NCBI GenBank assembly: GCA_001595785.1
Contig: LSSJ01000038.1
Coordinates: 3,020 to 67,019, forward strand
DNA: 64,000 bases
From: Euryarchaeota archaeon SM23-78
GTDB taxonomy: Archaea; Nanobdellota; Nanobdellia; Woesearchaeales; SM23-78
Reading direction: 5' to 3'
Part shown: piece by piece, positions 14,227-59,955 of the stretch
Layout of the letters: the number at the start of each line of letters is the position of its first letter
Position numbering within the stretch: position 1 is the stretch's first letter
Made by a program: the position numbers and the translations under genes
The notes under the pieces: generated by a model
The model's input: only the letters and a program-made list of their open reading frames with translations
The model's database searches: none
Told to the model about the DNA's origin: nothing

Positions 14227-14266
14227 AATCCCCCTCAGTTTTTCGCCCGTTCGCTACGCTCACTCC

Positions 14267-14400
14267 CAAAAACCGTCAAAAACATGGTTTTTGTGGGTCC
14301 AAAAATGCTTTGCATTTTTGAGACCTGGGAAAAGGCAGGCGACTCCTAGTCAATGCTCAGAAGCAGAGCTTCTGGCATCGCAAAAACCAGAAGTTTTTGC
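14267..14400 (-). other. Hairpin-rich GC-elevated spacer between mcm and the OB-fold gene (possible sRNA or structured 5' leader)
   Basis: Four stem-loops: 14267-14293 (CAAAAACC/GGTTTTTG), 14300-14320 (CAAAAATGC-TTT-GCATTTTTG), 14358-14374 (CAGAAGC-AGA-GCTTCTG) and 14380-14400 (GCAAAAAC-CAGAA-GTTTTTGC). Confidence 0.4.
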
Positions 14401-14432
14401 TGAAAACGACCGGAGCCCCCTTATTAAAATAA

Positions 14433-19927: not shown

Positions 19928-22900
19928 TTGAAAAAAATGGGTGGGTTTATGAGAATTAAAAAGGAGGTCCTCTTCTTATTCCTACCTATTATCCTGCTAG
20001 TTATAGGCTCTGGAAGTGTTGGTGCCGCTTGTGTAGGTAATAATATCTTTGATTGCTCCCAACACACCACTCAATCATCCTGTGATGCCAGTCCTTGCTG
20101 TGCATGGAATGCGGCCTGGCTTTCAGGGGTTTGTATAAAAAAGAACTGTGCAAACATTGCCTCTGGTTCATGCGGAACCTGTTGTGATCCTGGAACACGA
20201 GATAGAATTGTTTGTGGTTATCAAAACAAGCCAGATGATCATGATGAGATGGACAAATTCTATTGCTGTGAAATATCAGGGGTGACTATTGATTATGGAG
20301 ATACTCATGAAAAAGACCCTGTTAATGTAGATGATTTTGAGCATTGTGATTATGGATATGCTATGTGTGGTTTTAAAAATAGCAAGAATAATGACCAGTT
20401 AACAGCGTTTCATTGTTGTAAAATTGTTGAGCCTGTAACTCTTGGAGCGTTTCGTTTAGCTGATTCAGATCAAGACGGAGGCAGTGCTTATGGTAATTCC
20501 AATGAAGTTGCTGTTCGCGCAACCAATGACCAAAGCGTAGAAGATGGGGTTGTTGCTTTAGACACTCTTCATTTTAGGACAATTACCCGTAATGACGGAA
20601 CCCCAGTATCCATTGATACCTCTAGCAGAGTGCTCGTTGATATTGCTGTTCCTCATGATTCAAAATTTTGTGATGCTGGTAGCCCTCCCCAACCTGAAAA
20701 CACCTTTCCTTGTGATGATTGCAAAACTAATCCTTCTAAACCTGGCTGTGCTGAGTGCTGCCAGTGCGGTGATGGCACGGGTACTGGTACTCCTAGTGGG
20801 GGTGGTGGCTGCTTCCTTGCTGGCACCAAGATTACCATGAGCGGTGGTTCTTTAAAAAACATTGAGGAAATCCAAATAGGAGATGTTGTCAAGGCTTATG
20901 ACAGTGAAAACCAGCGAATGGTTGCTGGCACTGTTACCAAGTTATTCCACCATTCTCCTGATGAAATGCTGCTTTCTTATTATCTTATTATTAATAATAA
21001 TCTTAGAGTTACGCCTGAGCATAGAGTTTTTACTGATAAAGGCCTGGTCTGGGCCAAAGCCTTGGCTTTTGGCTCTGTTTTGATTGATGAGAATGGAGAA
21101 CAGATAATGGTTGCTTCAATTGAAAAAGTGTACGAAAGAGTTCCAACCTATAATTTTGAGGTTGAAGAGTATAATACTTATTTTGCAGAGGGCTTTGCTG
21201 TGCACAATGCAAAAGCAATAGGCGACTGCGGTGACGGCTGGTGTGACCCTACAGAAGACAGCGCTACTTGTTATCAAGACTGCGGACACCTAGCAATGGC
21301 AGGACCCTCTCCTTCCCTGGACTTTGATTTAGGCAGCGCAATAACTGGCTTTGTTATAAAAGATGTTTCTGACTGCCCTAACAATGATATTATTCCTCAG
21401 GAATGTAAGGATATATATACTGTTCATGCAGGTATTTGTGGATGCGGCACCAAGCCAGCTGCTTGTCATTTAAGAGACCAAACGACTTGCCAGGCAGACT
21501 CTGATTGCAGATGGTGCGAACAGCCAACAGACACCATCAATTATCCTTATGCTTTTCCAATTCTTAACAGCACTGCTGCCACTGATTCTGCTTCTTGTGT
21601 TAATATTACCTGGGATGTTTTTAATTGCGGCCAATGCGGCTTTCCAGGAGGAGGAGCGCCTGTTACCCAGAACAATAAGGGTTTTTGTCCTGCAAATAAG
21701 CCTTATTGTGTGAAAGGAGAATGTAAGAGTAAAAGCCAAGCCAAAAGCCTTGGTTGGGACCAGGTTTATATTCCTGAAGAGCTAACTGATAATGGAGATT
21801 TTAACCCTGTTTATCGTTATGATGTAAAAAGCAGTGGAGGAGCCTATTATTCCGAGTGGTATGATAATTCTGGTAATGTGGCTGGTCAAACCCTGCCCAC
21901 TTATCTTTTACATGATATTGGGTCTAATGAAAATATTTGTTCTTTAGCCACTGGCGGTAGTTATAGCTTTGACTCTGCCTATGGTTGTTGTGGTGATAAG
22001 AAATGTTATGAGAAAGGAGGCACTGTTTGTAACACTGGTGCTATTTGTGATGGTAGCCAGTGGCATATTGCTTCTAACACAAACCAGCATGGAGAAGTCT
22101 TTCTTCTTGATAATTGCGAAGTTTTATGGGATAATTATCCTGTTGCTAATGTAGAAGGCACCTTTGTAAGATGTGTTGATAAAGATAGGGAAGGAAACTA
22201 TATGGCTGGGCGTTTGATTGGTACGCCTATTTGTTCTCCATCATACCCAGACTATGAGGGACAAGGCATTGATCCAGGTATTGCAGGCTTTATGCAGTAT
22301 GCTTGCAGTGCTGGTGAATATAGTGTGGGTGGTTTTAGAGCCATGCCTGACAACACGTGTGCTGGACATGGCCAGAATGTAGGAGACCTTCAACAATCAG
22401 ATATTGATGTACATTATGTTTGTGATTTGGATGTGGTTGATGATACTGCGTTTGCTTTTGCATATATTGTGGATACAGGCGGATTAGGTGGGAATAATGT
22501 AGCACCAGGCATTATTGGACGAGAAGGTGAAGACAGAAGTGTTGTGACTTATGAGCAATGTCCTGCAGGCATTACTTCTACCTGGGCAACAGGAGAAGAT
22601 TCTATGAGCACACCAGCTATTGTGCCTTGCCCTGGAAAACTAAAGGTTAATCCTATTAGTTTTAGTAATATCTATTATTATATTGAAAAACCAACCATTC
22701 CTAGGACATGGGGTTGGTCTCTTGGAAGACAATATCCTACTGCTGGCAGAACCCTACAAATTTGTAGAGCGCCTGACCCTACAGACCCAACAGACACGCC
22801 TGGTATGCATTCATTAAGAACCATGAAATATGTGCTTGGAGATGGTAGCAGCATGGGTCGTGTTAATGATCATGAGTATGTTTGTTATACAGATGAGAGC

Positions 22901-25645
22901 CTGCCTCCTCCAGATCAAGATAATGGTGTAAGAGCAAGGATAGGTATTTGTTGTGGAGGAGATAATTGTAATGGTATTCTGGGGGATATTGGCTCTAATG
23001 GAAAAAAATATTATCCTGGTGATTATGTGAATGTGAGTGGTAATGCGCTTTACTGCTTAAACAATGGCAGGTGGAGTTATGACTTGGATGATGAAACTAG
23101 ACAAAGCGAGTGTGCTGCACACTTTAGTGCCACAGACACTTATTGCTGTTCAGAAGGAGATGATACCACTAATTGGCTAAGTGAATCTTATAATGATCCA
23201 AACAGTAGTGTAGGCGCTTGTTTTAAGGGTGAGCCTCAATACAATGACCAGTATCTTAAATATAAAGGTCTTGATTACTCAAACGCATTTGTGAGCAATG
23301 GAACCTTTTATGGCTGTGGTTTTAATGATTCATTATTTATCTCAGAGTTTAAAATAGCAGAAGACCCTGGCTTAATGCCTGTAACAGGCAGCGTGGTTGC
23401 TAGTGCTCCTTTATTTGGCATTACTGGTTTTGGTGTTGAAGACATTCCTCCTTGGAATGATGGTCCTACATGCGAAGCAGCAGGTTGGGGCTGGGCTCTG
23501 GCTGCTGTTGGTACTGCAGGTATAGATTATTGTGATGATGATAATATAAATCAAGGACGCACACCTCAAGGAGGGCCTTATGCTTTGATTTGCACAGGCG
23601 GAGGCACTGGTTACTTATTGAACTCAGCTGTTGGCACTTGGAGTGGTGATAATCCAAGTAGTTGTGTAAATGACTTGACTCCTGGTAAAATAATCAAGCA
23701 GATTAGTTGTAATGGAAATCCTGTGCCTATTACCAATAGTGAAAGATTAAGCGCGACTCATTTAGGAGTATCAGGAGACTCTTCAAGAATAAGGCTTTGT
23801 GATAAGGGTGCAAGTTCGAGTCCTCCTGCCTTGGGCACAGTTCCTGCAAGCTCTTTAAGCACATGTATAAAAGAGTGTATCACAGAGATGTGTCATAACA
23901 CAGCTATAGGGCAAGAGCAGTGTAATGATCTTTGTGATCCGTCTGTACAGACCAAGCCTTGTGATATGAGTGATTGCCTTGGTCTTTCTTCTAACACAAA
24001 TGTTAATTGCAATAAAAATCCTTGCAAGGATTGTGCTGCTTGGTGTAATGTAGCAGCAACCCTTTGTAGTGGTGTTTGTAAACCTAATCATTATGTTGGC
24101 TGGGCTTGTTATCCACCTAGACCAGAACAACCCTTGGAATGTAGGAAATGCACTTACCCAATCATGCATGCAGGAGATACAAAAGAACCCCTTGTTTTCT
24201 GTGAAATGATAAATGATTCCAAGAAAACCACGCTTTGTGATTTAAATGCTTCTGGAAGAGTTAGTCATGCTTGCTTGCAAAACGTTGAGGATTGGCCTAA
24301 CCCAGGCACTGGGTGTAATGATACAAGAACAGGAGAGCCTTTAATAAAAGAAACAGATTATTGTACTATTCTTGGCAGCTCTTTTGGAGATGTTTATTGT
24401 TCTTATAATAATGCCTGGGAGAATACTGGTGGCAAGAATCTTTCTCATAAATCAGTTGTGCCTGGTCCTCTATTGGAGCTCTTTGTAAACATAACTCAGA
24501 ATCCTGATTTGCAACCAGCTAATTGTTGTGAGCCACAACAATGCTGGGATCCATCTGCAGACGGAGGCCAGGGTAAATGCATTCAACCCCAAGCAGGAGC
24601 CACTGTGTTTTACCAGGTGAATGGTACTGATAGATATCAGTGCTTGAATGGGGTATGGATTAATGTGCTTGGTGAAGGACAAAGAACCCCTGATAATTGT
24701 TATGCAGGTTATTGTCCAGAGTCAGGCCAGTGTTTGTATGATATTAATGGGCTTCCTGCTTTTAACAACAATGTTAGCCCTGGTGCACAACCCCAATGTA
24801 TAAAGAGTGGCCAATACATTGGTGACCTTGCTTGTGTTAGTGGTGAGTGGACTACTAGGACCAAGTTGTTGGCTATGAAGCTAGCTTCTATTGTCACAAA
24901 CCAGGTAGATGACTTTGTGCTTATGTGCGCACCTCAAGACGAGATTCTTATTAACCTGCAGAACTTTGGAGCCACTAATAATTATTGCGTGCTTAACTAT
25001 GAAGGTCAGAGGATATTAGGGACCACGCTTAACCAGCCCTTGTATGACCCTGTTACAAACGATGACTTTCTTACTGCTCTTGAGCAGAGCTTCTTATTAT
25101 CATATCCAGATGCAGCCACCCTTGATTTAAGTGGATGCCACAATGCTGATAAATTTCAAAGATGTGTTAATCACGAATACCTAAAAGTATATTATGATAG
25201 TACTAATAAAATGATTATTTTTAGTGATGAAGAAGTTTATGGCTTAACCCCTGGCTTTGGACAAACTATTTGCAATCTTCTTCCTTCCTGGCTCAAATGG
25301 CTCTGCCCAGGACCTACTAATCTTGAGGCAAGCCTAGAAGACCTCCAGCTTTTTAACAAGGTGTATGCTGCTAGGGAAGTGGTTGCAACCACAAGCAGAG
25401 AGGTGTTTGGAGTTGCAGAGCACATGTGTGATGACCCCTTAACCTACCCGCCTGTGTGGCGCTACTCTTTTAACTATACAGGTTTTTCTTCAGCAGACCT
25501 TGATTATCTTGTTAGATATGTTATTGCTAAGGACGCCATAATTACCCAGTCACAGAATCATATTTTTATCAAGGAACCAGACCCAAAGCTTAAGCCACGC
25601 ATCTGGACCTCACTCATACTTCTAAGAAACCCTGAGCAAGAATAA
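19928..25645 (+). CDS. Giant secreted cysteine-rich surface protein (1905 aa) with an internal Hint/BIL domain
   Basis: Uninterrupted 5.7-kb ORF. The TTG at 19928 is the track start; ATG 19937 or 19949 (MRIKKEVLFLFLPIILLVIGSGSVGAAC, a Sec-type signal) is more likely. Cys content is very high throughout, and there is no TM anchor at the C-terminus. Confidence 0.85.
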   Translation: MKKMGGFMRIKKEVLFLFLPIILLVIGSGSVGAACVGNNIFDCSQHTTQSSCDASPCCAWNAAWLSGVCIKKNCANIASGSCGTCCDPGTRDRIVCGYQNKPDDHDEMDKFYCCEISGVTIDYGDTHEKDPVNVDDFEHCDYGYAMCGFKNSKNNDQLTAFHCCKIVEPVTLGAFRLADSDQDGGSAYGNSNEVAVRATNDQSVEDGVVALDTLHFRTITRNDGTPVSIDTSSRVLVDIAVPHDSKFCDAGSPPQPENTFPCDDCKTNPSKPGCAECCQCGDGTGTGTPSGGGGCFLAGTKITMSGGSLKNIEEIQIGDVVKAYDSENQRMVAGTVTKLFHHSPDEMLLSYYLIINNNLRVTPEHRVFTDKGLVWAKALAFGSVLIDENGEQIMVASIEKVYERVPTYNFEVEEYNTYFAEGFAVHNAKAIGDCGDGWCDPTEDSATCYQDCGHLAMAGPSPSLDFDLGSAITGFVIKDVSDCPNNDIIPQECKDIYTVHAGICGCGTKPAACHLRDQTTCQADSDCRWCEQPTDTINYPYAFPILNSTAATDSASCVNITWDVFNCGQCGFPGGGAPVTQNNKGFCPANKPYCVKGECKSKSQAKSLGWDQVYIPEELTDNGDFNPVYRYDVKSSGGAYYSEWYDNSGNVAGQTLPTYLLHDIGSNENICSLATGGSYSFDSAYGCCGDKKCYEKGGTVCNTGAICDGSQWHIASNTNQHGEVFLLDNCEVLWDNYPVANVEGTFVRCVDKDREGNYMAGRLIGTPICSPSYPDYEGQGIDPGIAGFMQYACSAGEYSVGGFRAMPDNTCAGHGQNVGDLQQSDIDVHYVCDLDVVDDTAFAFAYIVDTGGLGGNNVAPGIIGREGEDRSVVTYEQCPAGITSTWATGEDSMSTPAIVPCPGKLKVNPISFSNIYYYIEKPTIPRTWGWSLGRQYPTAGRTLQICRAPDPTDPTDTPGMHSLRTMKYVLGDGSSMGRVNDHEYVCYTDESLPPPDQDNGVRARIGICCGGDNCNGILGDIGSNGKKYYPGDYVNVSGNALYCLNNGRWSYDLDDETRQSECAAHFSATDTYCCSEGDDTTNWLSESYNDPNSSVGACFKGEPQYNDQYLKYKGLDYSNAFVSNGTFYGCGFNDSLFISEFKIAEDPGLMPVTGSVVASAPLFGITGFGVEDIPPWNDGPTCEAAGWGWALAAVGTAGIDYCDDDNINQGRTPQGGPYALICTGGGTGYLLNSAVGTWSGDNPSSCVNDLTPGKIIKQISCNGNPVPITNSERLSATHLGVSGDSSRIRLCDKGASSSPPALGTVPASSLSTCIKECITEMCHNTAIGQEQCNDLCDPSVQTKPCDMSDCLGLSSNTNVNCNKNPCKDCAAWCNVAATLCSGVCKPNHYVGWACYPPRPEQPLECRKCTYPIMHAGDTKEPLVFCEMINDSKKTTLCDLNASGRVSHACLQNVEDWPNPGTGCNDTRTGEPLIKETDYCTILGSSFGDVYCSYNNAWENTGGKNLSHKSVVPGPLLELFVNITQNPDLQPANCCEPQQCWDPSADGGQGKCIQPQAGATVFYQVNGTDRYQCLNGVWINVLGEGQRTPDNCYAGYCPESGQCLYDINGLPAFNNNVSPGAQPQCIKSGQYIGDLACVSGEWTTRTKLLAMKLASIVTNQVDDFVLMCAPQDEILINLQNFGATNNYCVLNYEGQRILGTTLNQPLYDPVTNDDFLTALEQSFLLSYPDAATLDLSGCHNADKFQRCVNHEYLKVYYDSTNKMIIFSDEEVYGLTPGFGQTICNLLPSWLKWLCPGPTNLEASLEDLQLFNKVYAAREVVATTSREVFGVAEHMCDDPLTYPPVWRYSFNYTGFSSADLDYLVRYVIAKDAIITQSQNHIFIKEPDPKLKPRIWTSLILLRNPEQE
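20810..21208 (+). other. Hint (intein/Hedgehog-like, BIL-type) autoprocessing domain, 133 aa, inside the giant ORF
   Basis: GGGG|CFLAGTKITMSGG (block A with Gly-Cys-Phe junction), VTPEHRVF (TxxH block B) and YNFEVEEYNTYFAEGFAVHN|A (blocks F/G ending in His-Asn). The +1 residue is Ala, not Cys/Ser/Thr. There is no endonuclease domain. Confidence 0.8.
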
Positions 25646-25734: not shown

Positions 25735-26595
25735 ATGAGAAAAGCTGCTTATGCTGGCTTGTTCTATCCTAAAACTATTGCTAGTCTTAGCAAGATGCTA
25801 GAAGAATGCTTTACTAATAAATTAGGACCAGGCGCTCTTCCTAGCAAGCCAAGACCAGGGGCAAAGTCACTAAAAGCAGCTATCTCTCCTCATGCAGGCT
25901 ATGTTTATAGTGGGATGGCAGCTGCCTGGAGTTATAAAGCCTTAGCAGAAGCAGAGCTTCCTGACTTGTTCATCCTCCTAGGTCCTAATCACCGCAGTAA
26001 TGAATCAGGTGTTTCATTGGAAACCTTTGAAACCCCTCTTGGCTTTGTAAGACCAGACCAGGAGTTTGGAAAAGCCCTTGTGAAAAAAGATAACATAGTA
26101 ATTAATGAAAGGATTCATGCGCATGAGCACAGCCTAGAAGTACAATTGCCTTTTTTACAATTTGCTTTTGGTACTAGAGCTGAGAAAATAAAGATTCTTC
26201 CATTACTAGTATCAGATGACCTAGACCTTGACAAAGCAGCCAAGGACTTAAAAGAAACAATTAGTGAGATGAAGAGAAAAGTCACTTTTATTGTGAGCAC
26301 TGATTTTACACATTATGGCTTTAGTTATGGTTACATGCCATTTAGTGATAATATCAAAGAAAACCTCTCAAAACTGGATAAAGGAGCCATTAACTTAATA
26401 CTAAAAGGAGATGCTCAAGGATTTGAAAAATATATTCATAAGACAGGAGCAAGCATATGCGGTTACCTACCCATAATCTTGCTCTTAAAAATCATTACCT
26501 TTGATAAAGCCTCCTTAGAGCAGTACTATACCTCAGGAGATGTTGTTGGTGATTATAGTAATAGTGTGAGTTATGCGAGCATTGTGCTTAGGTAA
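25735..26595 (+). CDS. MEMO1-family protein (AmmeMemoRadiSam system protein B)
   Basis: MRKAAYAGLFYPK...ISPHAGYVYSG...EHSLEVQLPFLQ are the family motifs. ATG 25735 lies 6 nt after GAGGTGA; the track start 25729 is a GTG. Confidence 0.85.
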   Translation: MRKAAYAGLFYPKTIASLSKMLEECFTNKLGPGALPSKPRPGAKSLKAAISPHAGYVYSGMAAAWSYKALAEAELPDLFILLGPNHRSNESGVSLETFETPLGFVRPDQEFGKALVKKDNIVINERIHAHEHSLEVQLPFLQFAFGTRAEKIKILPLLVSDDLDLDKAAKDLKETISEMKRKVTFIVSTDFTHYGFSYGYMPFSDNIKENLSKLDKGAINLILKGDAQGFEKYIHKTGASICGYLPIILLLKIITFDKASLEQYYTSGDVVGDYSNSVSYASIVLR

Positions 26596-26621
26596 GCCGG
26601 TCTGGTGTTTGAGGACCGATG
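26596..26621 (+). repeat. Post-stop motif family B copy (GCCGGTCTGGTGTTTGAGGACCGATG)
   Basis: Immediately follows the stop at 26593-26595. The same GTCYGGYGTTTGAGRAC box follows the stops of hydG (49763-49789) and porD (59531-59557, minus strand). Confidence 0.6.
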
Positions 26622-26645
26622 AATTATTAAATTTAAAAAATAAAG

Positions 26646-26786
26646 GTGTTCAAAAAAAGTGCCCGCTCGGGCCTACTTATGACACCGAGGGCTCCACCTC
26701 CCCGTAGGGGGCACGTCCCCCTGTTCCGCTTTGATTATTAAACGGATATATGCCCTCGCAAATTGGCACTTACTTTTTTTGAACAC
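26646..26786 (-). ncRNA. Structured GC-rich element, copy 1 of 3 (unknown family; candidate ncRNA)
   Basis: The reverse complement aligns with 37430-37587 and 38680-38813. A 15-bp closing stem (GTGTTCAAAAAAAGT at 26646-26660 pairs with ACTTTTTTTGAACAC at 26772-26786) encloses conserved inner helices. No ORF of 60 aa or more covers it. Confidence 0.6.
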
Positions 26787-26806
26787 TATTAAAAATTACA
26801 AATAAA

Positions 26807-28702
26807 ATGAAAAAATCCCAGATAACCATGTTTGTAATCCTTGGCATGGTCTTGTTAATAGGATTTATAATTCTTACTGCTATTATACGCAACACCAGCC
26901 CCCCTAAAGGTAATATTCAGGAGATTCTTAAGCAGTTGCAAACAGGCAGTGTAAAGAACCACGTGACTACTTGCATACTACAAACATCTATGGATGGACT
27001 TGAAAGCCTGGGTGCTAATGGAGGAGTGATATATAATTTTGAGGCAGGCACCATTCCTTTTGAGGATAAAATATTAGGGAGGGATTATCTTAATTACACA
27101 TATCTTAATAAACCTTATTTTGTGGATTATGCTTTGAAAAGGAACACCCTTTGTGAGAATGTTAGTTATAAGATTCCTGATTATCCATGCCTAGACACGC
27201 CTTTTAACAGGCTTACCTTTATATATAATGAGGAGTGTTTATTCAACTCTTTCTACTCTGCTTATGACGGCTTCTTTGGTCAGAATAATATGAGCAAACT
27301 GTGCTATATTGCTCGTGAATCCACTTGCGAAGGATATGCAAAAGGCATAGAACTAGCTCTGACCTTGCAAAAACAGTTAGAGGATTATATTGCAAACACC
27401 CTGCCTTTATGTATTGACCTTTCTGCTTTTTCAAGCAGATTAGACGCTAATATAACTGTAGAAGCAGAACCTGTTGTGGAATCCACGATTCATAACTCAG
27501 ACATCCTAGTGGTTGTTAAGTACCCTGTAAAAATTAATTTTAAAGGACAAGACCCAATAACAACAGTGGTTGATTACCAAGTCAACCTTAATATTAGGCT
27601 GGGCTTGATGTATAACTTTATATATAATCTGTATTCCAGGGATTCAAAAAACATAGACTTTAATCTTAATAATGAATTTATTAGTTCTTCTTTTTGGAGG
27701 CAAGGATTAGAGCTGAAAAAGATTAATAATCCTTGCACTACTTGCCCTCGACCTTATTATCATGATGATATTGTTGAGGTGCTTGACAGGAGTTCTATGG
27801 TAAAGGGAAGGCCTTTCTTGTTCAGAACAGCTGTTGAGAATAGGAAACCTGCTCTTGACAAGCTAGAAGATGTTAATATTGACTTAAAAAACACAAACTT
27901 TGTTAATATACGTCTAAATGGTTATGACCCTGATGATACAGGGTTAACATATTATTTCTTGTCTCTTGGAAAAGGAGAAGTCCAGTGTGCTGGCGCAGGA
28001 GGCCTTCCTGCAGGAGCAGTTCCTAGTGGTGGTACTGGTTGGTGTGAGAGTGATGCAAGAGTGTCAGGGGAAAAAGGAGAGCTAGTTCACCCAGGACTTT
28101 TGTGGATGCCTATTGACAGAGTAGATATTGGTTCACATGAAGTAGGAGTCCTTGTTATAGATGATAGTGGGTTGTTTGATTATCAGTTCTTTAGGATTAA
28201 TATTACTGACTCAAGCATGAATAATCCTCCTAGTGAGCAGTGTATTGATGAGTGCATCCTAGAAGCATGCTCTGATTATGCAGGAGAAGCAGACCAATGT
28301 AAAGCTCATTGTTATCATCCTAGCTGTCAGCTAGAGCTGTGTGATGTTACTAGTATTAAGGCTTCTGGTAAGAATCCTTATAAGGACTGTTCAATGTGGT
28401 GCTTTCATGCAGCAAATGCATGTAATATCTGGTGTGATGAGCATTATGTTGGTCCAAAATGCTTTCCTCCTGGCGATAATGTGAACAAAAAAAAGTGTAG
28501 ACAATGCGCATATGGCATTATGCACTCAGGAGAAAGAGAAAAACATGTTGATTGCTCTACCATAAATTCAAAGGCTGCCTGTATTAATAACATGCCTAAT
28601 TGTTTTTGGGTGGAAGAGGAACATAATAATTTTGTAGGTGCTTGTTTTAATGATACTTCCTTAAACAATACAAAATTTCGTGCTTATATAATTACTGAAT
28701 AG
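26807..28702 (+). CDS. Cysteine-rich surface protein (631 aa) with pilin-like class III signal peptide
   Basis: The N-terminus MKKSQITMFVILGMVLLIGFIIL matches the KK[GAS]Q-hydrophobic pattern. A central Ig/cadherin-like segment follows (NGYDPDDTGLTYYF...IGSHEVGVLVIDDSGLFDYQFFRINI). The C-terminal ~120-aa Cys module is shared with the 1905-aa protein. Confidence 0.8.
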   Translation: MKKSQITMFVILGMVLLIGFIILTAIIRNTSPPKGNIQEILKQLQTGSVKNHVTTCILQTSMDGLESLGANGGVIYNFEAGTIPFEDKILGRDYLNYTYLNKPYFVDYALKRNTLCENVSYKIPDYPCLDTPFNRLTFIYNEECLFNSFYSAYDGFFGQNNMSKLCYIARESTCEGYAKGIELALTLQKQLEDYIANTLPLCIDLSAFSSRLDANITVEAEPVVESTIHNSDILVVVKYPVKINFKGQDPITTVVDYQVNLNIRLGLMYNFIYNLYSRDSKNIDFNLNNEFISSSFWRQGLELKKINNPCTTCPRPYYHDDIVEVLDRSSMVKGRPFLFRTAVENRKPALDKLEDVNIDLKNTNFVNIRLNGYDPDDTGLTYYFLSLGKGEVQCAGAGGLPAGAVPSGGTGWCESDARVSGEKGELVHPGLLWMPIDRVDIGSHEVGVLVIDDSGLFDYQFFRINITDSSMNNPPSEQCIDECILEACSDYAGEADQCKAHCYHPSCQLELCDVTSIKASGKNPYKDCSMWCFHAANACNIWCDEHYVGPKCFPPGDNVNKKKCRQCAYGIMHSGEREKHVDCSTINSKAACINNMPNCFWVEEEHNNFVGACFNDTSLNNTKFRAYIITE

Positions 28703-31862: not shown

Positions 31863-34800
31863 ATGATAAAAAAGAGGTTTACCTTAATTGGAATCCTGCT
31901 CTACTTTTTGATAGGGCTGCTATTAATTCCTTTAGTTTTCTCAGTAATAAATATTGTTGTTGATCAAAACAGAGTGAAGATCACTGCAATTTATGAAGGA
32001 GATGTGGGTTTAGAAAAGGCTAACATAACTGATTTAATAGGAGACCAACTTTTTTATATATATCCTACAAATATAACTGTACAAAAAATATATCAGTCTG
32101 GTAATACAACTCTTAGATTTGGCGGCACAGGTTGTCCTCTTGGCTACTCTCCTTTAGGCATGCCCTATAGACCTTGTTTTATTTTAAACCCAGGGGATTA
32201 TACTTTCTCTGTTTCTGGTAGAACTGCTTTTGGAACTGTGAGGATTGATAATCCTGAGGAGTGTGATGGATATAATCTTAGCAATACTAATTGTAGTACT
32301 TACACAGATCCAAATACAGGAAAGCAACCCTTTGGAGGAGGAACCCTTTCTTGCTATGACTGCTCCTTTGATGTCTCAGGCTGTTTGGTGTGTGAGCCTA
32401 ATCATTGCTCTATTTGTGATAACCAGATTTGTTCTGGTAATGGAAAACAGTGGACCACGATTAATTATACTTGGATGTGCGGTCCAAAAGACAGTAATCT
32501 TGGGACTCTAGGCACAAGCTGTACTCCAGGGGTATGTGATGTTTTTGCAGGCATGGTGTGTGATTCAAATGGGTTCTGGACCAGCACAGGCTTTTGCACT
32601 TATTGCTCTGATGAGGATAGCTCTTGTTATGGTTCATGCACTCCAGGTAACTGTGATATTAGTGCTAAGGCTTTTTGTGACCAAGGCAGCTGGGTTACTC
32701 CTTTAACCAATGATTACTGTGCTGTGTGTGGCAACTATGATAGTGAGTGTCTTGGTGGTTGCTCAGGCAGTGCGTGTGATACTAAGAATAACAAGTATTG
32801 TAGTAGTGGAAGCTGGGTTTCTCCTAGCAGCCTGAATGATTATTGTCAGCGCTGTGGTCAAGTAGATGCTGATTGTGGCATTCCCATATGTATTGATGGA
32901 ACCTGTGATATTTGCAATGATGCTAAGAAGTACTGTAATAATGGGGTGTGGGAGAGTCAAAATTATTGTGATTATAGTAGGTGTGGAAGTTATGATTCTT
33001 GGTGCAATAGAAGCTGTCAACACGGCACATGTGATACTGTTGCTCATAAGTATTGTAGGTATAATCTCTGGGAATCTGACTGGGACACTTATTGTAATAA
33101 TTGTAAATCTCAAGATAGTTCTCTTTACTGCTTAAACCCAGAGGACTGTGGTAATGGAGTGATAGACAGATGGAATGTTAGTGGCTTTTGGGTTGGAGAA
33201 GCATGTGATAAAAAAGGACCTAACCTGAACGGAGCTAGCTGCCTAACCTGGCCTCAGTTTGTAGGAGGCACTCTTGGATGTGCTGATAATTGTTTGAGCT
33301 TTGACAGGAGCAGCTGCATCCTTAGGAACGAGTCTTGTGGTGATGATATTATCCAAGGAGATGATATGTGTGATGGAGATGACCTTGGAGGTAAGGATTG
33401 CACAGACCCAATCTTTAATTTTATGGGAGGCACTCTTGGATGCACCAATGATTGCAAGTATGATACTAGTAACTGCATTCCTTTTCCTGAGTGTGGTGAT
33501 GCTGTTGCTAACCAGGATTCTGAGGACTGTGATAAAGATGATTTAAGAGGAGAAACTTGTGAGTCTTTGGGTTATGCTGGTGGATCTTTAAAGTGTGATA
33601 ATGATTGTAGTTATGATAAATCTGGTTGTTATGGTGGTGTAAAGGTGTGTGGTGATGGTGTTGTTCAGAAGCCTAATGATGCTGGTTTTAATGAGCAGTG
33701 TGATATGGCTGATTTAAATAATATGGATTGTAAGGATTTTGATGGCTATACTGGTGGCACCTTGGTTTGTAATGGTGATTGTACTTATGATTACACTGGT
33801 TGCTCAGGCGGAACCTTTAAATGCAGTGATAGAGTAAAAAATCAGGAGTCAGAGGATTGTGACTATCTTGACCTAGGCGGAGAAACATGCGAATCATTGG
33901 GTTATGATAATGGTACCCTGGAATGTTTTAGTGATTGTACTTTTGATAAGTCTAGGTGCTATTTTAATCCTGGTTCAAAGGTGTGCGGGGATGGTACAGT
34001 TCAACAGCCAAATGATGCTGGTTTTAATGAGCAGTGCGATGTGGCTGACCTAGATGGTGCGAAGTGTAAGGACAAGGATGATTTTACAGGAGGCCTTCTG
34101 ACTTGTCATGGAGATTGTACTTTTAATTATGATATGTGCACAGGAGACAGCGGTGCTGTTTGTGGAAATAACATCCTAGAACCAGGTGAGCACTGTGACG
34201 GAGATGTTGAGGATGATGACTGTACATCTATTGGTAAGAAAAACTTTATTGGAGGAACCCTTAGCTGTTCAGATAACTGTGAGTTTGATACAAGTGATTG
34301 CATAGTAAACATAACTCCTCCTGTGTGTGGTGATGGAATAGTAAATGGCTATGAAGGGTGTGATGGCACTAACCTTGCAGGGCTTACCTGCGGATACTTT
34401 ACCCAGTATGTTAGTGGCACTCTTAAGTGCAATCAGAACTGCACTCTTGATTTTTCTAATTGTTTAAAACAAGGACAAACAGCTGCTCATTGCGAGAATA
34501 ATGTGACAGACGAGGACGAGACAGACCTTAACTGCGGAGGATTATCCTGCCCTGGATGTCCAAATGGTAAGAGGTGCTTGAATCATTCTGATTGTATATC
34601 AAACTATTGTTTATCAAATATATGCACAGAAGCAAGCTGCTCTGATACAATAAAAAACGGTCTTGAAACAGATGTAGATTGTGGAGCCAACTGTCCTTGT
34701 TGTGGCTTAGATATGAGTTGTAATATTAATTCTGACTGTTGCGGTCTTTTCTGCCACCCAGACACTCGCAAATGCGATGTTCCTTCATGTGATGATGGTT

Positions 34801-37392: not shown

Positions 37393-37429
37393 TTAAGATT
37401 AATTAGGTTATAGGTTATATTAAGCAGAT

Positions 37430-37587
37430 GCTGTCCTAAAAACTAGTGCCAATTTGCGAGGGCATTTATCAGCTTTACAGTCAAAGCGGAACAGGGGGTT
37501 GCCCCCTACGGGGAGGTGGAGCCCTCGACATTATAAGCGTGCCCGAGCGGGCACAGAGCGAGCGAATGCGAGCGATTTTAGGACAGC
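37430..37587 (+). ncRNA. Structured GC-rich element, copy 2 of 3 (unknown family; candidate ncRNA)
   Basis: A 12-bp closing stem (GCTGTCCTAAAA at 37430-37441 pairs with TTTTAGGACAGC at 37576-37587). Inner helices: AGTGCC/GGCAC, CGAGGGC/GCCCTCG, GGGGG-TTG-CCCCC and GTGCCC-GAGC-GGGCAC. Confidence 0.6.
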
Positions 37588-37624
37588 GCCTATTAAGCAA
37601 CACAATTAAAAAAGTAGAATCAGG

Positions 37625-38679: not shown

Positions 38680-38813
38680 GCAAGGGTGGTGGTTGCCATT
38701 TGTTGCGAGGGCATACATCAACTTTACACTCAAAGCAGAAGAGGGGGTTGGCCCCTTCGGGGAGCTGGAGCCTTCGGAAAAATAAGTGGGCCCGAGCCTG
38801 GCAACCCCCTTGC
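38680..38813 (+). ncRNA. Structured GC-rich element, copy 3 of 3 (unknown family; candidate ncRNA)
   Basis: Closing stem GCAAGGG..GGTTGCCA / TGGCAACCCCCTTGC. Inner helix CGAGGGC/GCCTTCG has one G-U pair, which is valid only for a plus-sense RNA. The CCCC-TTCG-GGGG tetraloop hairpin is present. Confidence 0.6.
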
Positions 38814-48953: not shown

Positions 48954-49754
48954 ATGTTATTCAAATCAGAAACTTTCAAGATTGTGAAAAAAGAGAAGCA
49001 AACAGAGGATGATTGTTTGTTTAGGCTAGAGCCTGTTGGCAAGAAAAAAATAAAGCTTAGTTATGAACCAGGCCAGTTCTTTCAAGTATCTGCTCCTGGA
49101 ATTGGAGAAGCACCTTTCTCTGTTTGTTCATATGATAAAGAGTTTATTGAATTCAACATCCGAGGATTAGGAGATGTTACTAATCATTTATTAAAGCTAG
49201 AGCCAAGCGATAAAATATGTCTTAGAGGTCCTTATGGCACCAGCTATCCAATGGAACAATTAAAAGGTAACAGCCTGGTGATTATTGGTGGAGGCACAGG
49301 CGTGGCTCCTCTTAGAGGGGTGTTAAAGTATCTTGAGAAGCACAGAGCTGATTATGATAGAGTGCATCTCTTCTTTGGTTTTAGAGATCCTAATGAAATC
49401 TTGTTTAAGAAGGATATGGAGCAGTGGAACAGAATCTTTGACCTAAACCTGACTGTTGATAAAGCACCTGATAGTTATACAGGCAAGGTTGGTTTAGTCA
49501 CTAAGATTGTTGAGGAGTCAGGTCTTAATAACAAGAAAAAAGCAGTTATGATATGCGGTCCTCCAATAATGATAAAGTTCACAATCCTGACTCTGGAGAA
49601 GCTTGGATTTCACCATGACCAAATCTTTGTGAGCTTTGAGAGAAGAATGAAGTGCGGGGTTGGCATGTGCGGTCACTGCATGATATCAGGTTTGTATGTT
49701 TGCAAGGATGGTCCTGTTTTTAGATATGATAAGGTTAAAGGGTTGCATGAGTAG
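48954..49754 (+). CDS. hydG: Sulfhydrogenase gamma subunit (FAD/NAD(P)-binding, 2Fe-2S)
   Basis: Ferredoxin-NADP-reductase-like fold (GQFFQV, GGGTGVAPL) with the C-terminal motif CGVGMCGHC. Confidence 0.8.
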   Translation: MLFKSETFKIVKKEKQTEDDCLFRLEPVGKKKIKLSYEPGQFFQVSAPGIGEAPFSVCSYDKEFIEFNIRGLGDVTNHLLKLEPSDKICLRGPYGTSYPMEQLKGNSLVIIGGGTGVAPLRGVLKYLEKHRADYDRVHLFFGFRDPNEILFKKDMEQWNRIFDLNLTVDKAPDSYTGKVGLVTKIVEESGLNNKKKAVMICGPPIMIKFTILTLEKLGFHHDQIFVSFERRMKCGVGMCGHCMISGLYVCKDGPVFRYDKVKGLHE

Positions 49755-49862
49755 AATTAATAAGTCTGTCCGGCGTTTGAGAACTCGATACTTATTGTTT
49801 AAAATTTTGAAGTTAAAATAAAAATAATTATTTGCTCGCTCGCTTTGCTCGCGAGGGAAAAG
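49755..49862 (+). promoter_or_regulatory. Conserved ~110-nt intercistronic module (hydG-hydD spacer)
   Basis: Reads AATTAAT..GTCCGGCGTTTGAGAAC, then an AT-rich stretch with GTTTAAAAT and AAATAAAAAT, then GCTCGCTCGCTTTGCTCGCGAGGGAAAAG and ATG. The same layout and boxes occur in the porD-porA spacer. Confidence 0.6.
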
Positions 49863-50666
49863 ATGAAAAAGACAAAAAAAGCATCAAAAGCAAAAAAGCC
49901 TAGAGTAGGCATCCAGAGCATTACTGGGTGTGCTGGCTGCCAGTTAAGTTTATACTTCATAGAGGATGTCCTGCTTGAACTGTTTGATAAGATAGAGTTG
50001 GTTGCTGCTCCAATGATTAAGGGTAAGAATGAAGAAGAAAATTATGATATTTTATTTGTTGAGGGCAGTGTTAGTTCAAAAGAAGACTTGGAAAATCTGC
50101 TTAAGTGGAGAAAACAAGCTAAGTTCTTGATTGCTCTGGGGGCGTGTGCTTCTCATGGTTGCATGCAGTCAATGAAGCACATGATGCATGAAGAAGAAGT
50201 AGAAGCAGCTGTTTATAATAAGTTTCCTTCTGATAAAAGATTAAAGCCAATTACTGCTGTTCCTTTACATAAGCATGTTCAAGTTGATTTTTACATCCCT
50301 GGTTGTCCTCCTGACAAAGAGGAAATTGAAAGGGTGCTTAAATGGCTTTTACAAGGCATAAAACCAAGGGTTTATGACAAGGCTGTTTGTCATGAGTGCA
50401 GTTTAAAAGAAAATTATTGCTTGTTAGATCAAGGGATAGAATGCTTAGGGCCTTTGATGAACGGTGGATGCAAAGCCTTATGTCCTGATTATAATCATCC
50501 CTGTACTGGATGCAGAGGCATGCTTGATGATGCTAATCTTAAGTCAGGCAAAGAGATATTAAGGGATAAAGGCTTTGACCCTGACTTAATGATAAAGAGG
50601 ATGACTAAATATAATACTTTACAGTTCATGGAGTTTGAGAGTAAGCCTAAGGAAGAGAAAAAGTAA
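49863..50666 (+). CDS. hydD: Sulfhydrogenase delta (small) subunit
   Basis: ATG 49863 follows GAGGGAAAAG. GCAGCQLS, GACASHGC and PGCPP are NiFe small-subunit/NuoB-like motifs. Confidence 0.85.
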   Translation: MKKTKKASKAKKPRVGIQSITGCAGCQLSLYFIEDVLLELFDKIELVAAPMIKGKNEEENYDILFVEGSVSSKEDLENLLKWRKQAKFLIALGACASHGCMQSMKHMMHEEEVEAAVYNKFPSDKRLKPITAVPLHKHVQVDFYIPGCPPDKEEIERVLKWLLQGIKPRVYDKAVCHECSLKENYCLLDQGIECLGPLMNGGCKALCPDYNHPCTGCRGMLDDANLKSGKEILRDKGFDPDLMIKRMTKYNTLQFMEFESKPKEEKK

Positions 50667-56237: not shown

Positions 56238-58268
56238 TTATCCTTTGCCACACCATCTCTTCAGCTCTTCCCATCTAGTATCAATATTCTTTTGGAGCTG
56301 TTCAATGATGTGTTGGTTTTCTGGCTTCATTAAATGCCTGAACCTTTTCTGCATCTTAAGCCATTCAATTACTGTCTTTTTATTATCGCCAGGGTCATAG
56401 TTCAGTATCCACTTACCATTATCCACTTCAAATAAAGGCCAGAAACAAGTGTCAACTGCCATCTTAGCAAGCTTTAAGGTTAAGTGCATTGGATATTTCC
56501 ATCCAGGAACACAAGGACTTAGCACATTGATAAAGGCAGGTCCTTTGACTGCAAAGGCTTTTTCTGCTTTTCTAACCAAATCCATATAATTATGAGGGCT
56601 GGCTTGAGCAACATAAGGGATATGATGACCTGCAACCACTGCTGTCAAGTCTTTTTTGAACTGTTCTTTACCTTTATGCACTTTTCCTACTTGAGATGTA
56701 TTGGTCCATGCACCAAAAGGAGTGCTGCTACTTCTCTGAATGCCTGTGTTATGCACCACTATACCGTCAGCCACAAAGTTGTGCTCGCCTTCAACTCTTA
56801 AGTCTAAAGTTGGTTGTTCCTTTACAAACTTAACAGAAATTATTTTTTCAGAGCTAAACCATTCATTATCTGCTAAGAAGTCTCTTTGTTTTGTTTGAGA
56901 AAGATATTTTTTAATGTCAGGTTGTTTCTTTTTACTAAAACAGATGTATCCATAACTGGAATCTTCTAATAACTCTCTGTAAACTACGAGGCTTCCCTTC
57001 TTTTTCTTTTGTTGATGTATCTTTCCCACTCTGTAAGTCATTGTTTGTAGCAATAATCTTAGTGTTTTTAACAACTCAATACTTGCAGATACATATCTGT
57101 GGCTTCTTCCTATTTTGTATCCATCTGAAAGCATTAATCCTTTGAGAAAGGCTTCTTTTTCTTCTTGTGGTAAGGTAAAAAGCCAGCTTGGAATGATTTT
57201 ATTCTTTGCTCCATTACCAAAACCAAGCGAATCAATAAATTTAGCTAGATTTACTGAGTATATGTAAAAATAATTTTTATCTTTTTCAGATAATTCTTTT
57301 CTAAATATTTTTCTATAAACCTCTTTTAATCTCTTTCTTGCTTTTGTGTTTCTTGGGAGAGCAAAACCTGTTTCTGCTTTATGAGTTCGAATCCACCCAT
57401 CGCCTACAAAGAGCCCTAAGAATTCCATTAATGCAGGAGAACTCTTCTTCGGGATCTTAACCTCATTAATCTTGTTTACCTTGTAATCTCCTTTTTTAGA
57501 TAGCTTAATAGCAGGGAAATTATAACTCTTGCCTTGTCTCAGTTTTTTTAACACTATTACCTCATCATTAGGTTTTAGTTGTGCTAGTGTTTTCCAGACT
57601 AACTTATTCTCTTTTTTACTTCTGCTTCTTTTAACAACAAGGAAAGGATGGTTTGAAGTGGCTTTTATTGTGTGGTGTAAGGTGCTCAACTCATAAACTT
57701 TCTTGACACCATTATCAAAAATACCAGTGCACCTTTTCAAAACTAGGCTTCCATTTTTCTGGTTAAAAGCATAAACTTTTTCTCCTATTTTTATCTCTGT
57801 AATTCTTTTCAAACCTTTTTCTGTCATTATAAGAGCGTCTAAACTTAAACAATTCATGTAGCCTTCATTATCAACGCATACATAAACAAAGTTATGTCCT
57901 CTTTCTAAGGCTCCTGAAAGTGACTGGAGTCCTATGTCATAGGTTCCTCCGTCCCCACCAAAAGCAAGGAATTTTATTTCTTTCTGAATCTTACCTTTCT
58001 TTTTCAAAACTTCATAAGCAGCTTCTGCTCCACTAATAGTAGCTGCAGCATTCTCAAAAGCATTATGAATCCAAGGAACATTCCAAGCAGTATATGGATA
58101 GATAGTTGTGCTAACCTCTAAGCAGCCAGTAGCAGTGGCTACCACGATTGGATCTTTGGTGCCTCTCATAACAGCTCGAGCAATAATACTAAGACCACAA
58201 CCAGGGCAAAGCCTATGACCAGGTGCTAATCGTTCTCCGGTTAATGCAAGTTCTCTAATGTTTGGCAT
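56238..58268 (-). CDS. porB: Pyruvate (2-oxoacid):ferredoxin oxidoreductase beta subunit, interrupted by an intein
   Basis: The N-extein has CPGCG and the TPP motif [10 protein letters not shown]...[10 protein letters not shown]. The C-extein resumes [15 protein letters not shown].... Joined exteins total 308 aa, a normal PorB size. Confidence 0.9.
56748..57851 (-). mobile_element. LAGLIDADG-type intein (368 aa) in PorB
   Basis: Starts at the Cys codon 57851-57849 (N|[13 protein letters not shown]) and ends at the His-Asn codons 56753-56748 (GIVVHN|T). Two dodecapeptide motifs are present: [10 protein letters not shown] and [10 protein letters not shown]. The +1 residue is Thr. Confidence 0.9.
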
Positions 58269-58269
58269 T

Positions 58270-59454
58270 TTATTCTCTCACTCCCAAATATCTCACTCTT
58301 TCACCAAGATTACCTTTCTTTACTTCTTCTAACTCATTAAACACTTTTTTTATCTGTTCTAAATCCAGTTCTCTTCCTCCTAGTCCATAAATGTAATCAA
58401 TAATATTTGGTTTTTCTTTTATCTCATGGAATGAGCTTCTTATCTCACTAAAGATAGGTCCTCCAAAGGCTCCAAAGCTATCGCTTCTATCAAGCACAGC
58501 AACTGCTTTTATCTTTCCAAGCTTTTCAACAACCATTTCATTAAGCCAAGGCCTGAACACTCTCATCTTTAACAAACCGACTTTTTGTCCTTTTGCTCTT
58601 AGCTCGTCAACAACCACTCTTACTGTTCCTGCACTGCTATTAGCGCACACAATAACTTTTTCAGCGTTTTCAAGCTTGTAGCCTTCAAAAAAGTCATATT
58701 TTTTTCCTGTTATTTTACCAAATTCATCAAACACTTCTCTTATAACACGCTTTGCATTCTGCATTGCTAGTACTTGTTGTCTTTTATGCTCAAAATAATA
58801 ATCAAACAAGTCAAGAGGACCATAAGTCACTGGTTTATCAACATCAAGCAAAGGATAATGACCTGTATGTTCTCCTACAAAATTCTTAACAGTCTCATCA
58901 TCAAGGATTTCTGCTGTTTCAACACTATGACTGGTAATGAATCCATCTTGGCAAACCATTACTGGCAATAAGACATCTTTGTGCTCACCAATTCTTACTC
59001 CCATAATTGTGTTTTCATAAGCTTCTTCTCCATTCTCAGAATACATTTGAATCCATCCAGTGTCACGACAACCCATGCTATCAGAATGGTCACAATGAAT
59101 ATTAATAGGAGCGCTTAATGCCCTGTTCACAACGTTCATAACTATTGGCAGCCTGGTGCTAGAAGCAATATAAACAATCTCCCACATTAATGCTAAACCA
59201 TTAGCACTGGTTGCTGTCATTGCACGAGCACCAGCAGCACTAGCCCCCACACAAGCACTCATAGCACTATGCTCAGACTCAACAGTAACCAAATCAGTAT
59301 CAATAATACCATCAGCAACAAACTGGGAAAAAGAATGCATGATATTAGTCTGAGGAGTAATAGGATAAGCAGCAACAACATCAGGATTAATCTGACGCAT
59401 AGCCTCTGCTGTGCACTGAGCTCCTGTGTATGCTTTACGAGTTTTTTGTACCAT
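58270..59454 (-). CDS. porA: Pyruvate (2-oxoacid):ferredoxin oxidoreductase alpha subunit
   Basis: 394 aa with AYPITPQT and [20 protein letters not shown], typical of PorA. The stop is 1 nt from the porB start. Confidence 0.9.
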
Positions 59455-59568
59455 TTTTTCCCTCGCGAACGTAGTGAGCGAGCGTAGTTATTTTATTTTT
59501 AATTTTTATTTAATTTTAAACTAAATTTTTCATTGGTCCTCAAACGCCGGACTGGCTTAAATTAATTC
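59455..59568 (-). promoter_or_regulatory. Conserved ~110-nt intercistronic module (porD-porA spacer)
   Basis: The minus-sense sequence reads GAATTAAT..GTCCGGCGTTTGAGGAC, then an AT-rich stretch with GTTTAAAAT and AAATAAAAAT, then CGCTCGCTCACTACGTTCGCGAGGGAAAAA and ATG. It is collinear with the hydG-hydD spacer. Confidence 0.6.
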
Positions 59569-59955
59569 TTAGTCTTTGAACTCCTTTTCCTCTTTCATCT
59601 CAATTGCTTTGAAAGGGCACTCCTCTGCGCAGATACCACAACCCTTGCAATAATCCAAATCAAAGCCTCCGAAGTTGCCAAGATTAGCTTTATCACTCAC
59701 TCCTTTTTTGCCTTTGTTAGGATCATCAACCCCTCCGACCTTTACGCAGGAATCAGGGCATACCATCCAGCAAATCATGCAATTAGTGCATTTCTCAGGT
59801 ATATGTATTGGTCTGAAAGTCCTCCAATCACCTGTTTTGTACTCCTTGCTATTACCTGCTTCAAGGATTTTTCCTCCTATAGGTATCTCTTTCCAATTCT
59901 TTAATTTCTGCTTATGCTCTTCATGATGTGTGTGCTGAGAGTTTGCTTCTGTCAT
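59569..59955 (-). CDS. porD: Pyruvate:ferredoxin oxidoreductase delta subunit (2x4Fe-4S ferredoxin)
   Basis: CTNCMICWMVCP and CKGCGICAEECP cluster motifs. N-terminal His-rich stretch. Confidence 0.85.
   Translation of the reverse strand: MTEANSQHTHHEEHKQKLKNWKEIPIGGKILEAGNSKEYKTGDWRTFRPIHIPEKCTNCMICWMVCPDSCVKVGGVDDPNKGKKGVSDKANLGNFGGFDLDYCKGCGICAEECPFKAIEMKEEKEFKD

Follow-up and report, generated by a model that had tools for sequence, protein, structure and literature searches.

A GC-rich, hairpin-closed intergenic repeat family of Woesearchaeales that probably consists of MITE-like mobile elements

When a GC-rich sequence that folds into closed hairpins recurs between the genes of an AT-rich archaeal genome, it can be asked whether it represents an RNA gene, a cis-regulatory RNA or a mobile repeat. 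This question is raised by a 64-kb contig stretch (64,000 nucleotides, hereafter the window) of a Woesearchaeota (DPANN) metagenome-assembled genome (MAG); the same contig is available from NCBI as GCA_019322785.1 JAHWID010000001.1. The window encodes PolD DP2, MCM, TBP, a [NiFe] hydrogenase module, pyruvate:ferredoxin oxidoreductase and PEP synthase, as well as Cys-rich surface proteins of very large size and small proteins whose signal peptides are of the archaeal class III (pilin-type). The initial annotation had reported three copies of a GC-rich element and proposed that they represent a novel structured RNA. All three copies (c1, c2 and c3) are recovered by direct reading and by alignment, and they have the following layout.

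26646-26786, minus strand: copy c1, subfamily A (26643..26789 as bounded by direct repeats; covariance model score 123.5 bits)
26772-26786 / 26646-26660: outer inverted repeat of c1, which follows a 3-nt end
26658-26770: core of c1, with the inner stem AGTGCC/GGCACT
37430-37587, plus strand: copy c2, subfamily A (full element 37427..37590; 130.9 bits)
37430-37441 / 37576-37587: outer inverted repeat of c2, with GAT before it and GCC after it
37445-37554: core of c2
37555..37575, plus strand: 21-nt insert AGAGCGAGCGAATGCGAGCGA of c2, between the inner and outer 3' stems
38680..38813, plus strand: copy c3, subfamily B (109.3 bits)
38680-38686 / 38807-38813: outer stem GCAAGGG/CCCTTGC of c3, followed by a 4-nt bulge
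38691-38698 / 38799-38806: inner stem GGTTGCCA/TGGCAACC of c3, which encloses the core

The similarity among these copies is far above chance. When the window is compared with itself by BLASTN, c1 and c2 are 85% identical over 120 nt (E 5e-30), c2 and c3 are 83% identical over 95 nt (E 2e-21), and c1 and c3 are 78% identical over 97 nt (E 8e-15). The 19-mer CGGGGAGGTGGAGCCCTCG within the core occurs three times versus 0.01 expected. A shared core had been described previously, and it is indeed present in all three copies as a conserved stretch of ~100-113 nt that extends from AGTGCC or GGTTGCC to GGGCAC or GGCAACC. The GC content of the element is 54-63% (54-58% for the cores in the window) versus ~38% for the genome, and c1, c2 and c3 are the only intergenic islands of the window with at least 58% GC per 60 nt (maxima 0.67-0.72). 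The 21-nt insert is found only in c2 and is missing from the other copies in the alignments; as read by eye, its reverse complement resembles the 5' motif of a second repeat, called family-2 and described below. Since the c1 sequence is identical across six assemblies of the same species, this copy is fixed in that species.

The element is non-coding: when the six frames were checked in seven copies, none was open in every copy, and c1 and c2 differ by a 2-nt indel. When 1.84e9 representative proteins were searched with phmmer for relatives of the c2 ORF, only the ORF itself and an unrelated tandem-repeat protein were returned. The annotation also found no known RNA family to which the element could belong, and this assessment agrees with our searches, which gave no relevant match either at gathering thresholds or at E<=10. 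Specifically, Rfam 15 at gathering yielded 0 matches in the window and only two tRNAs in six related loci, and nothing relevant was found at E<=10 in the region of c2 and c3. The reported lack of C/D, H/ACA and tRNA hallmarks is likewise upheld, in that C/D and H/ACA boxes were rejected by sequence reading and ARAGORN found no tRNA in the window. As far as we have checked, the element is new to Rfam and undescribed.

Several other resemblances were considered and set aside. A k-turn at the bulge was rejected by sequence reading. An archaeal bulge-helix-bulge processed RNA (an intron or a circular RNA) needs two opposed 3-nt bulges with a 4-bp helix between them, whereas the element has a single bulge on its 5' arm and an inner stem of 5-10 bp. 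The sequences GUGCCAAUU, GAGGUGGAG and GCCCGA resemble motifs of the SAM-I riboswitch, but they occur in permuted order and without an Rfam match, and we regard the likeness as coincidence. Separately, the core of c1 (26686-26700) and of c2 (37513-37527) includes GGAGGUG, a full Shine-Dalgarno-like sequence that can pair with an adjacent CCCCCU run and that has no start codon at a useful distance.

Further copies were sought with two covariance models (R1 and R2) in the DNA around homologues of two proteins, namely the Memo-like protein that adjoins c1 and an antiporter encoded beside the copy called L008. This sample comprises ~350 kb from roughly 10-12 related genomes. There are five additional copies in these relatives, four of which are intact or decaying and one of which is broken by a nested insertion, for a total of eight; no others were found in the sample, and five of the sampled lineages have none. 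The L numbers below are our own locus labels.

L029:20884-21006: copy c4, subfamily C, intact (R1, 107.7 bits)
L027:16042-16173: copy c5, subfamily B, intact (R1, 107.7 bits)
L033:5601-5712: copy c6, subfamily C, identical in three assemblies (R1, 70.6 bits)
L032:10080-10194: copy c7, subfamily A, degenerate (R1, 49.8 bits)
L026:8812-9154: the L008 copy, subfamily A, disrupted (R1, 61.9 bits)

A pattern scan of species-representative genomes gave a single match, in a Roseicyclus MAG, which is attributed to chance. The corresponding scan of JGI metagenome contigs gave seven matches, six of them chance occurrences in GC-rich contigs and one real, which is the L008 copy. Three patterns had 0 matches in viral contigs. 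The sample ERZ27275860 contains both the window and the L026 contig, and proteins identical to the L026 antiporter are found in 'Euryarchaeota archaeon SM23-78' and in an MBW30... MAG; the L008/L026 contig and the window are probably from the same species. If so, there are four copies in ~83 kb of that species. Horizontal transfer was entertained because c2 and the L008 copy are 97% identical, and was dropped given this probable identity of species. It can also be noted that the spacer that holds c4 in L029 carries two tRNA genes in L032 (14200-14348, minus strand).

The closing stems listed in the annotation are all present, including the 15-bp GTGTTCAAAAAAAGT/ACTTTTTTTGAACAC, the 12-bp GCTGTCCTAAAA/TTTTAGGACAGC and, in c3, GCAAGGG..GGTTGCCA/TGGCAACC..CCCTTGC. 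Among the eight copies these stems are of three inherited types, which define three subfamilies.

Subfamily A: (G)TTCAAAAAAAGT as the outer stem with AGTGCC as the inner one, in c1, c7 and the L008 copy; c2 shares the AGTGCC stem, and its outer stem has diverged
Subfamily B: GCAAGGGTGG as the outer stem with GGTTGCC or GCGCC as the inner one, in c3 and c5
Subfamily C: stem G(A/G)TTAGC(A/G)TC, in c4 and c6

The ends of the element can be represented as GGTGTTCAAAAAAAGT, GCAAGGGTGG or GRTTAGCRTC. Considered as terminal inverted repeats, the stems measure 15 bp in c1, 12 bp in c2 (15 with 2 mismatches), 7+8 bp in c3, 10 bp in c4 and c6, 10+5 bp in c5 and 14 bp in the L008 copy. The outer stem of c2 was not found as a separate repeat. 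Matched substitutions, and also matched one-base insertions on both arms, separate the stems of c1 from those of c2 and the stems of subfamily A from those of subfamily B. Shared closing stems are located at unrelated loci of different genomes (c1/c7/L008, c3/c5 and c4/c6) and therefore must be part of the element rather than target sequence. Thus, the suggestion that they might be variable target-site flanks does not hold, because the variable stems are inherited with the element and are common to copies at unrelated loci.

Do these stems indicate an RNA? One possibility is that the copies are small structured RNA genes or cis-regulatory RNAs, wherein the plus strand folds into a closed multi-helix structure that possibly switches between pairings of its G-runs and C-runs. 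Structure tests were conducted with a model-based alignment (A6) of seven intact copies. The previously noted covariation of the stems is evident for the closing helix, in which all five pairs exhibit double changes and 100% of the cells are paired. Mismatches in the closing stems of the seven copies are limited to two plus-strand G-U pairs, A-C does not occur, and G-C to G-U changes opposite the G-runs are tolerated. The full-length sequences of c1 (z = -5.8) and c2 (z = -4.6) fold better than shuffles. The GGGGG/CCCCC hairpin that had been pointed out is present with its loops ACGTG, TTG and TTGG, and the variable loop length, the core that is conserved across subfamilies and the lack of an Rfam match would all suit an RNA. 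Like Rfam-type structured RNAs and riboswitches, the element forms a GC-rich island in an archaeal genome that is AT-rich, its closing helix co-varies, and it folds into a closed structure of several helices.

The inner stem AGTGCC/GGCACT had been assigned to both c1 and c2, and it is fully formed in c1, whereas c2 has only the 5 bp GTGCC/GGCAC since its 3' strand reads GGCACA. This inner 'stem', which has 5-10 bp, runs on into the invariant sequences GCGAGGGC ... GCCCGAGC, whose pairing includes a tandem G-A/A-G mismatch. A single bulge of 3-4 nt is present, on the 5' arm of subfamilies A and B. Against the RNA interpretation, copy c3 is not clearly better folded than shuffles (z = -1.35), and three mutually incompatible folds of the core fit equally.

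Fold 1, proposed in the annotation: CGAGGGC/GCCCUCG and GGGGG/CCCCC
Fold 2, minimum-free-energy structure of single sequences: GC-GA-GGGC/GCCC-GA-GC, with GGGGG/CCCUC around CCCC/GGGG
Fold 3: four-way junction from RNAalifold

Each of these folds has 90.5-91.8% paired cells, a covariation score of 0.31-0.36 and one or two isolated double changes, as calculated from seven sequences only. The inner G/C helices of the seven copies are invariant or exhibit only G-C to G-U changes, and helices that are mostly invariant are uninformative on the core fold. The mutually exclusive pairings that had been described do exist in the sequence, and they are real possibilities that seven copies do not discriminate, because G-runs can pair with any pyrimidine run and the helices are nearly invariant. 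The proposal that the layout resembles a switch or attenuator is not sustained: a switch cannot be shown when three rival core folds score equally, and the placement of the copies is unlike that of a cis-regulator.

The plus strand folds slightly better than the minus strand (alifold energies of -28.9 versus -23.7 kcal/mol, and mean single-sequence energies of -39.2 versus -37.2), and this preference is weak. The C-to-T change in GCCTTCG of c3, which creates a G-U pair and had been taken as valid only for plus-sense RNA, is present. A T7 run does follow GCCCGAGCGGGCAC in c1, and it is just the 3' arm of an A7/T7 outer inverted repeat.

All eight copies are intergenic and start 8-47 nt from a stop codon. 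Six of the eight are oriented like the upstream gene, c1 and c4 run antisense to the genes on both sides, and c3 is located between convergent genes. Copies c5, c7 and L008 begin only 10-15 nt past the stop codon, too close for them to have their own promoter. The arrangement expected of a riboswitch or attenuator, which would be a sense-oriented 5' leader with a terminator or antiterminator, is not what the copies exhibit, and the T-run is confined to subfamily A. Positions near stop codons and mixed orientation fit insertions that have survived in the sole harmless place, and are unlike those of a leader-type regulator.

There are direct repeats outside the stems of two copies.

37418..37426: left target-site duplication of c2, TATTAAGCA
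37591..37599: right target-site duplication of c2, TATTAAGCA
26634..26642: proximal direct repeat of c1, TAAAAAATA (plus-strand sequence)
26790..26798: distal direct repeat of c1, TAAAAATTA, AT-rich, TATA-like and just upstream of the gene starting at 26807

The repeats of c2 match at nine of nine positions (shuffle P = 0.002 over all offsets) and are located 3 nt outside the perfect palindrome on both sides. Those of c1 match at eight of nine positions and share this 3-nt spacing (P = 0.006 when the offset is fixed). At both copies the duplicated sequence is AT-rich, TATA-like and immediately upstream of the next gene. Direct repeats at c3-c7 and L008 are not above shuffle expectation (P 0.14-1.0); perhaps they have decayed, or the ends of these elements have been misplaced.

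Comparison of the same sites between genomes reveals that the insertions are polymorphic between species. The Memo-like protein has relatives in Woesearchaeota/Nanoarchaeota MAGs, and the distance from its gene to the next is 7, 30-64 or 132 nt in relatives, where the element is absent, versus 211 nt in the window. The distance from the antiporter gene to the next is 65-125 nt in four relatives versus 417 nt in L026, which has the L008/L026 copy; in L032 this spacer is 187 nt and is occupied by another GC-rich element with a closing hairpin. Five relatives (L026, L027, L029, L032 and L037) have an empty c6 site. Gene order around the copies is conserved in relatives that lack the element. The L008/L026 copy has itself been invaded, such that 26 nt of its core are replaced by ~229 nt made up of two inverted family-2 units.

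The spacer between an AP-endonuclease-like gene and a nucleotidyltransferase gene is an insertion hotspot, whose contents differ among six genomes.

L026:13434-13609, L029:15999-16255 and L033:16004-16178: spacer with family-2
L027:16014-16262: spacer with c5
L032:10043-10288: spacer with c7
L037:16048-16175: spacer with AT hairpins alone

A promoter-proximal AAAAGCAAAAGTTTAATAAAAG is kept in this spacer whatever its content. The annotation had named decaying copies of a MITE as the result that would speak against an RNA, and this is largely what the 9-bp duplications at c1 and c2, the empty syntenic sites and the decayed and nested copies amount to. Given that the element is not conserved at orthologous loci, that the direct repeats indicate insertion, that three copies lack promoter room, that two of the eight run antisense to the adjacent genes and c3 sits between convergent ones, and that some copies are decayed or disrupted, we consider small RNA genes or cis-regulatory RNAs to be an unlikely explanation. 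The absence of a family match and of cross-species synteny, the mixed orientation and an inner fold that covariation leaves unsettled likewise set the element apart from Rfam-type RNAs.

We therefore favour the view that the element is probably a family of non-autonomous, non-coding, MITE-type mobile repeats in a Woesearchaeales (DPANN) lineage. Direct repeats, inverted repeats, a non-coding core, AT-rich intergenic targets and nesting match the description of prokaryotic MITEs, and the co-varying closing helix is the folded look of terminal inverted repeats. MITEs have been described as consisting of direct repeats, terminal inverted repeats and a core of ~110-145 bp, as giving stable stem-loop transcripts, as inserting into one another and as typically AT-rich (PMC10969869). 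For QMITE2 of Coxiella the direct repeats are 7-9 bp, the terminal inverted repeats 23-29 bp and the core 113-145 bp (PMC10969869). In a survey of 8220 archaeal genomes, a Woesearchaea genome was among the densest in MITEs, with 105 per Mb (PMC11602168).

The element resembles Coxiella QMITE2, the Correia elements of Neisseria and SM1-SM4 of Sulfolobus in being small, non-coding and multicopy, in having terminal inverted repeats and short direct repeats, in occupying AT-rich intergenic sites, in nesting with other repeats and in having a predicted transcript that forms a stable stem-loop. Its size lies within 50-800 bp, its terminal inverted repeats are at least 10-15 bp, it is present in some genomes and absent from others, and duplications within the 2-10 bp range flank c1 and c2. 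Duplications of 9 bp are made by several DDE transposase families (IS1, IS4/IS10/IS50, IS903 and IS256). There is also likeness to the palindromic repeats of bacteria (REP/BIME, ERIC/IRU and the pneumococcal BOX/RUP/SPRITE), which are GC-rich or strongly folding, are located after genes and insert into each other. These repeats are co-transcribed and clustered, and they can act on 3'-end stability or termination. However, REPs are only 20-40 nt, lack direct repeats and depend on RAYT, and they have no sequence relation to the element. We know of no REP/BIME, ERIC/IRU or BOX/RUP/SPRITE family from archaea.

According to this model, the mobile unit would be ~120-165 bp, with terminal inverted repeats (the 'closing stems') around a conserved GC-rich core. 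A transposase, presumably encoded outside the window, would cut an AT-rich, TATA-like target with a 9-bp stagger and thereby leave 9-bp direct repeats, perhaps by cut-and-paste chemistry. Insertions would survive only where they are harmless, which is in the gap that separates a stop codon from the promoter or stop codon of the following gene, and surviving copies would then decay or receive insertions of other repeats. In a read-through transcript the inverted repeats and the G/C runs would necessarily fold into a stable, closed multi-hairpin structure, which may incidentally influence termination or the stability of 3' ends. In subfamily A, the A7/T7 arms would provide a T-run in both orientations.

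Some features do not accord with a MITE. Direct repeats were found at only two of the eight copies, and an autonomous partner whose ends match was not encountered; the window ORFs that were scanned include no transposase, integrase or reverse transcriptase. The transposase-binding ends are usually the conserved part of a MITE, whereas here a single core is conserved and the ends differ between subfamilies, which is the reverse of the usual pattern. Instead of family-wide terminal repeats common to an autonomous IS, there are three unrelated stem types, and the element is GC-rich within an AT-rich genome, unlike typical MITEs. The matched changes of the arms and the mismatches restricted to G-U also fit selection on a folded single strand.

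These features leave room for other arrangements. The GC-rich core might be a functional RNA module, serving in 3'-end protection or termination or as a small RNA, and be carried as cargo, from one Woesearchaeal genome to others, on mobile units with interchangeable terminal repeats. Such a cargo would account for a core that is conserved between changing ends, for arm changes that occur in pairs and for mismatches that are only G-U and only on one strand. The GC-richness, the subfamily-specific ends and the failure to find a partner transposase leave room for a functional core, whether RNA or single-strand DNA, as a minority possibility; as regards the RNA cargo in particular, we are doubtful. 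If it were true, the family would be a case of a structured RNA that is spread by transposition in archaea.

It is quite improbable that the unit moves as a single-strand DNA hairpin, either with a Y1/HUH transposase (as an IS200/IS605-derived PATE or a REP/RAYT-like element) or with a tyrosine recombinase (as an attC/VCR-like site). The closing stems are conserved by structure rather than by sequence, the 5' arm of subfamilies A and B has a 3-4-nt bulge, copies directly follow ORFs, and a related genome encodes an IS200/IS605 TnpA (L039 6407-6856). Integrons have been reported in DPANN archaea. The attC sites and the Vibrio cholerae repeats (VCR) are imperfect palindromes of ~60-140 nt that have bulged bases, follow ORFs and are recognised by their structure, with a branched central part in long sites. 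However, neither IS200/IS605 nor attC recombination would be expected to leave the 9-bp direct repeats that flank c1 and c2, and the end hairpins of the L039 IS200 element (GCCC-TTTA-GGGC type) are unlike the ends studied here, and for these two reasons a PATE or REP derived from IS200/IS605 is disfavoured. An attC site was rejected as well, in that the stems GTTC...GAAC, GCAAGGG...CCCTTGC and GATTAGC...GCTAATC lack the R''/R' boxes (RYYYAAC...GTTRRRY), the GTTC...GAAC of c1 and L008 being reversed. The window has no integrase, and copies are solitary rather than arrayed in cassettes.

Finally, although the stems vary between copies and all copies are just downstream of genes, the idea that a conserved core was inserted repeatedly into the loops of existing palindromes such as terminator hairpins, whose stems would then be target sequence, is far-fetched given the same stems at unrelated loci (c1/c7/L008, c3/c5 and c4/c6), the empty sites of relatives without a matching palindrome, and direct repeats that lie outside the stems.

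With the MITE-like interpretation preferred, the element is most likely a new family within a known class of mobile repeats. It adds a repeat family with subfamilies, a 9-bp target duplication and post-stop hotspots to a lineage whose mobile elements are almost uncharacterised. It also indicates that GC-rich, well-folding intergenic islands of AT-rich DPANN genomes can look like RNA genes to both the eye and the algorithm, yet can be mobile repeats, and that covariation of a closing stem alone fails to separate the two.

Other repeats were observed in the same DNA. There are representatives of family-2 at 14238-14422 of the window, where it stands alone, and at L026:13446-13531, L026:8840-9068 (two inverted units), L029:16012-16180 and L033:16016-16105. 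Its layout consists of the 5' motif TTTTCGCCCG(Y)TCACT..CGTTCGCTC, one to three AT-stem hairpins, AAAAGGCAGGCGAC, a hairpin with a co-varying stem, and then GTCCCCTT. At one orthologous site it begins 1-2 nt past the stop codon in three genomes. Family-2 lacks obvious terminal inverted repeats and does not match any Rfam family.

A repeated intergenic module with 74-80% identity is located at 49753-49865, 59452-59569 (minus strand) and 26593-26644 of the window. It carries the hairpin motif GYC.GTCYGGYGTTTGAGRAC right after a stop codon, followed by an AT-rich stretch, and its 3' part is the GC-rich block GCTCGCTC...CGCGAGGGAAAA-ATG, located just before the next start codon. This block resembles the 5' motif of family-2 and the 21-nt insert of c2. 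Unrelated GC-rich elements with A/T-run stems are found at L017:10880-11010 and L032:5668-5790 (AAAAACCGCAC...GTGCGGTTTTT and AAAAATCGCC...GGCGATTTTT, respectively), and they occupy the same sites at which the window and L026 hold the studied element. This suggests that there are many such element families in the clade.

The IS200/IS605-type TnpA mentioned above (Y1_Tnp, 149 aa) belongs to an insertion at L039:6290-7075 that has GCCC-TTTA-GGGC end hairpins and is located upstream of a proteasome gene. It is present in one assembly and absent from the otherwise near-identical L037 and L038. Within the window, the TPP-binding subunit of a 2-oxoacid:ferredoxin oxidoreductase (56238-58268, minus strand) contains an intein with a LAGLIDADG domain, and a 1905-aa Cys-rich surface protein (19928-25645, plus strand) contains a Hint domain. 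A 1299-aa Cys-rich ORF includes an internal tandem repeat of ~290 nt, wherein the units 33510-33793 and 33840-34129 are 71% identical.
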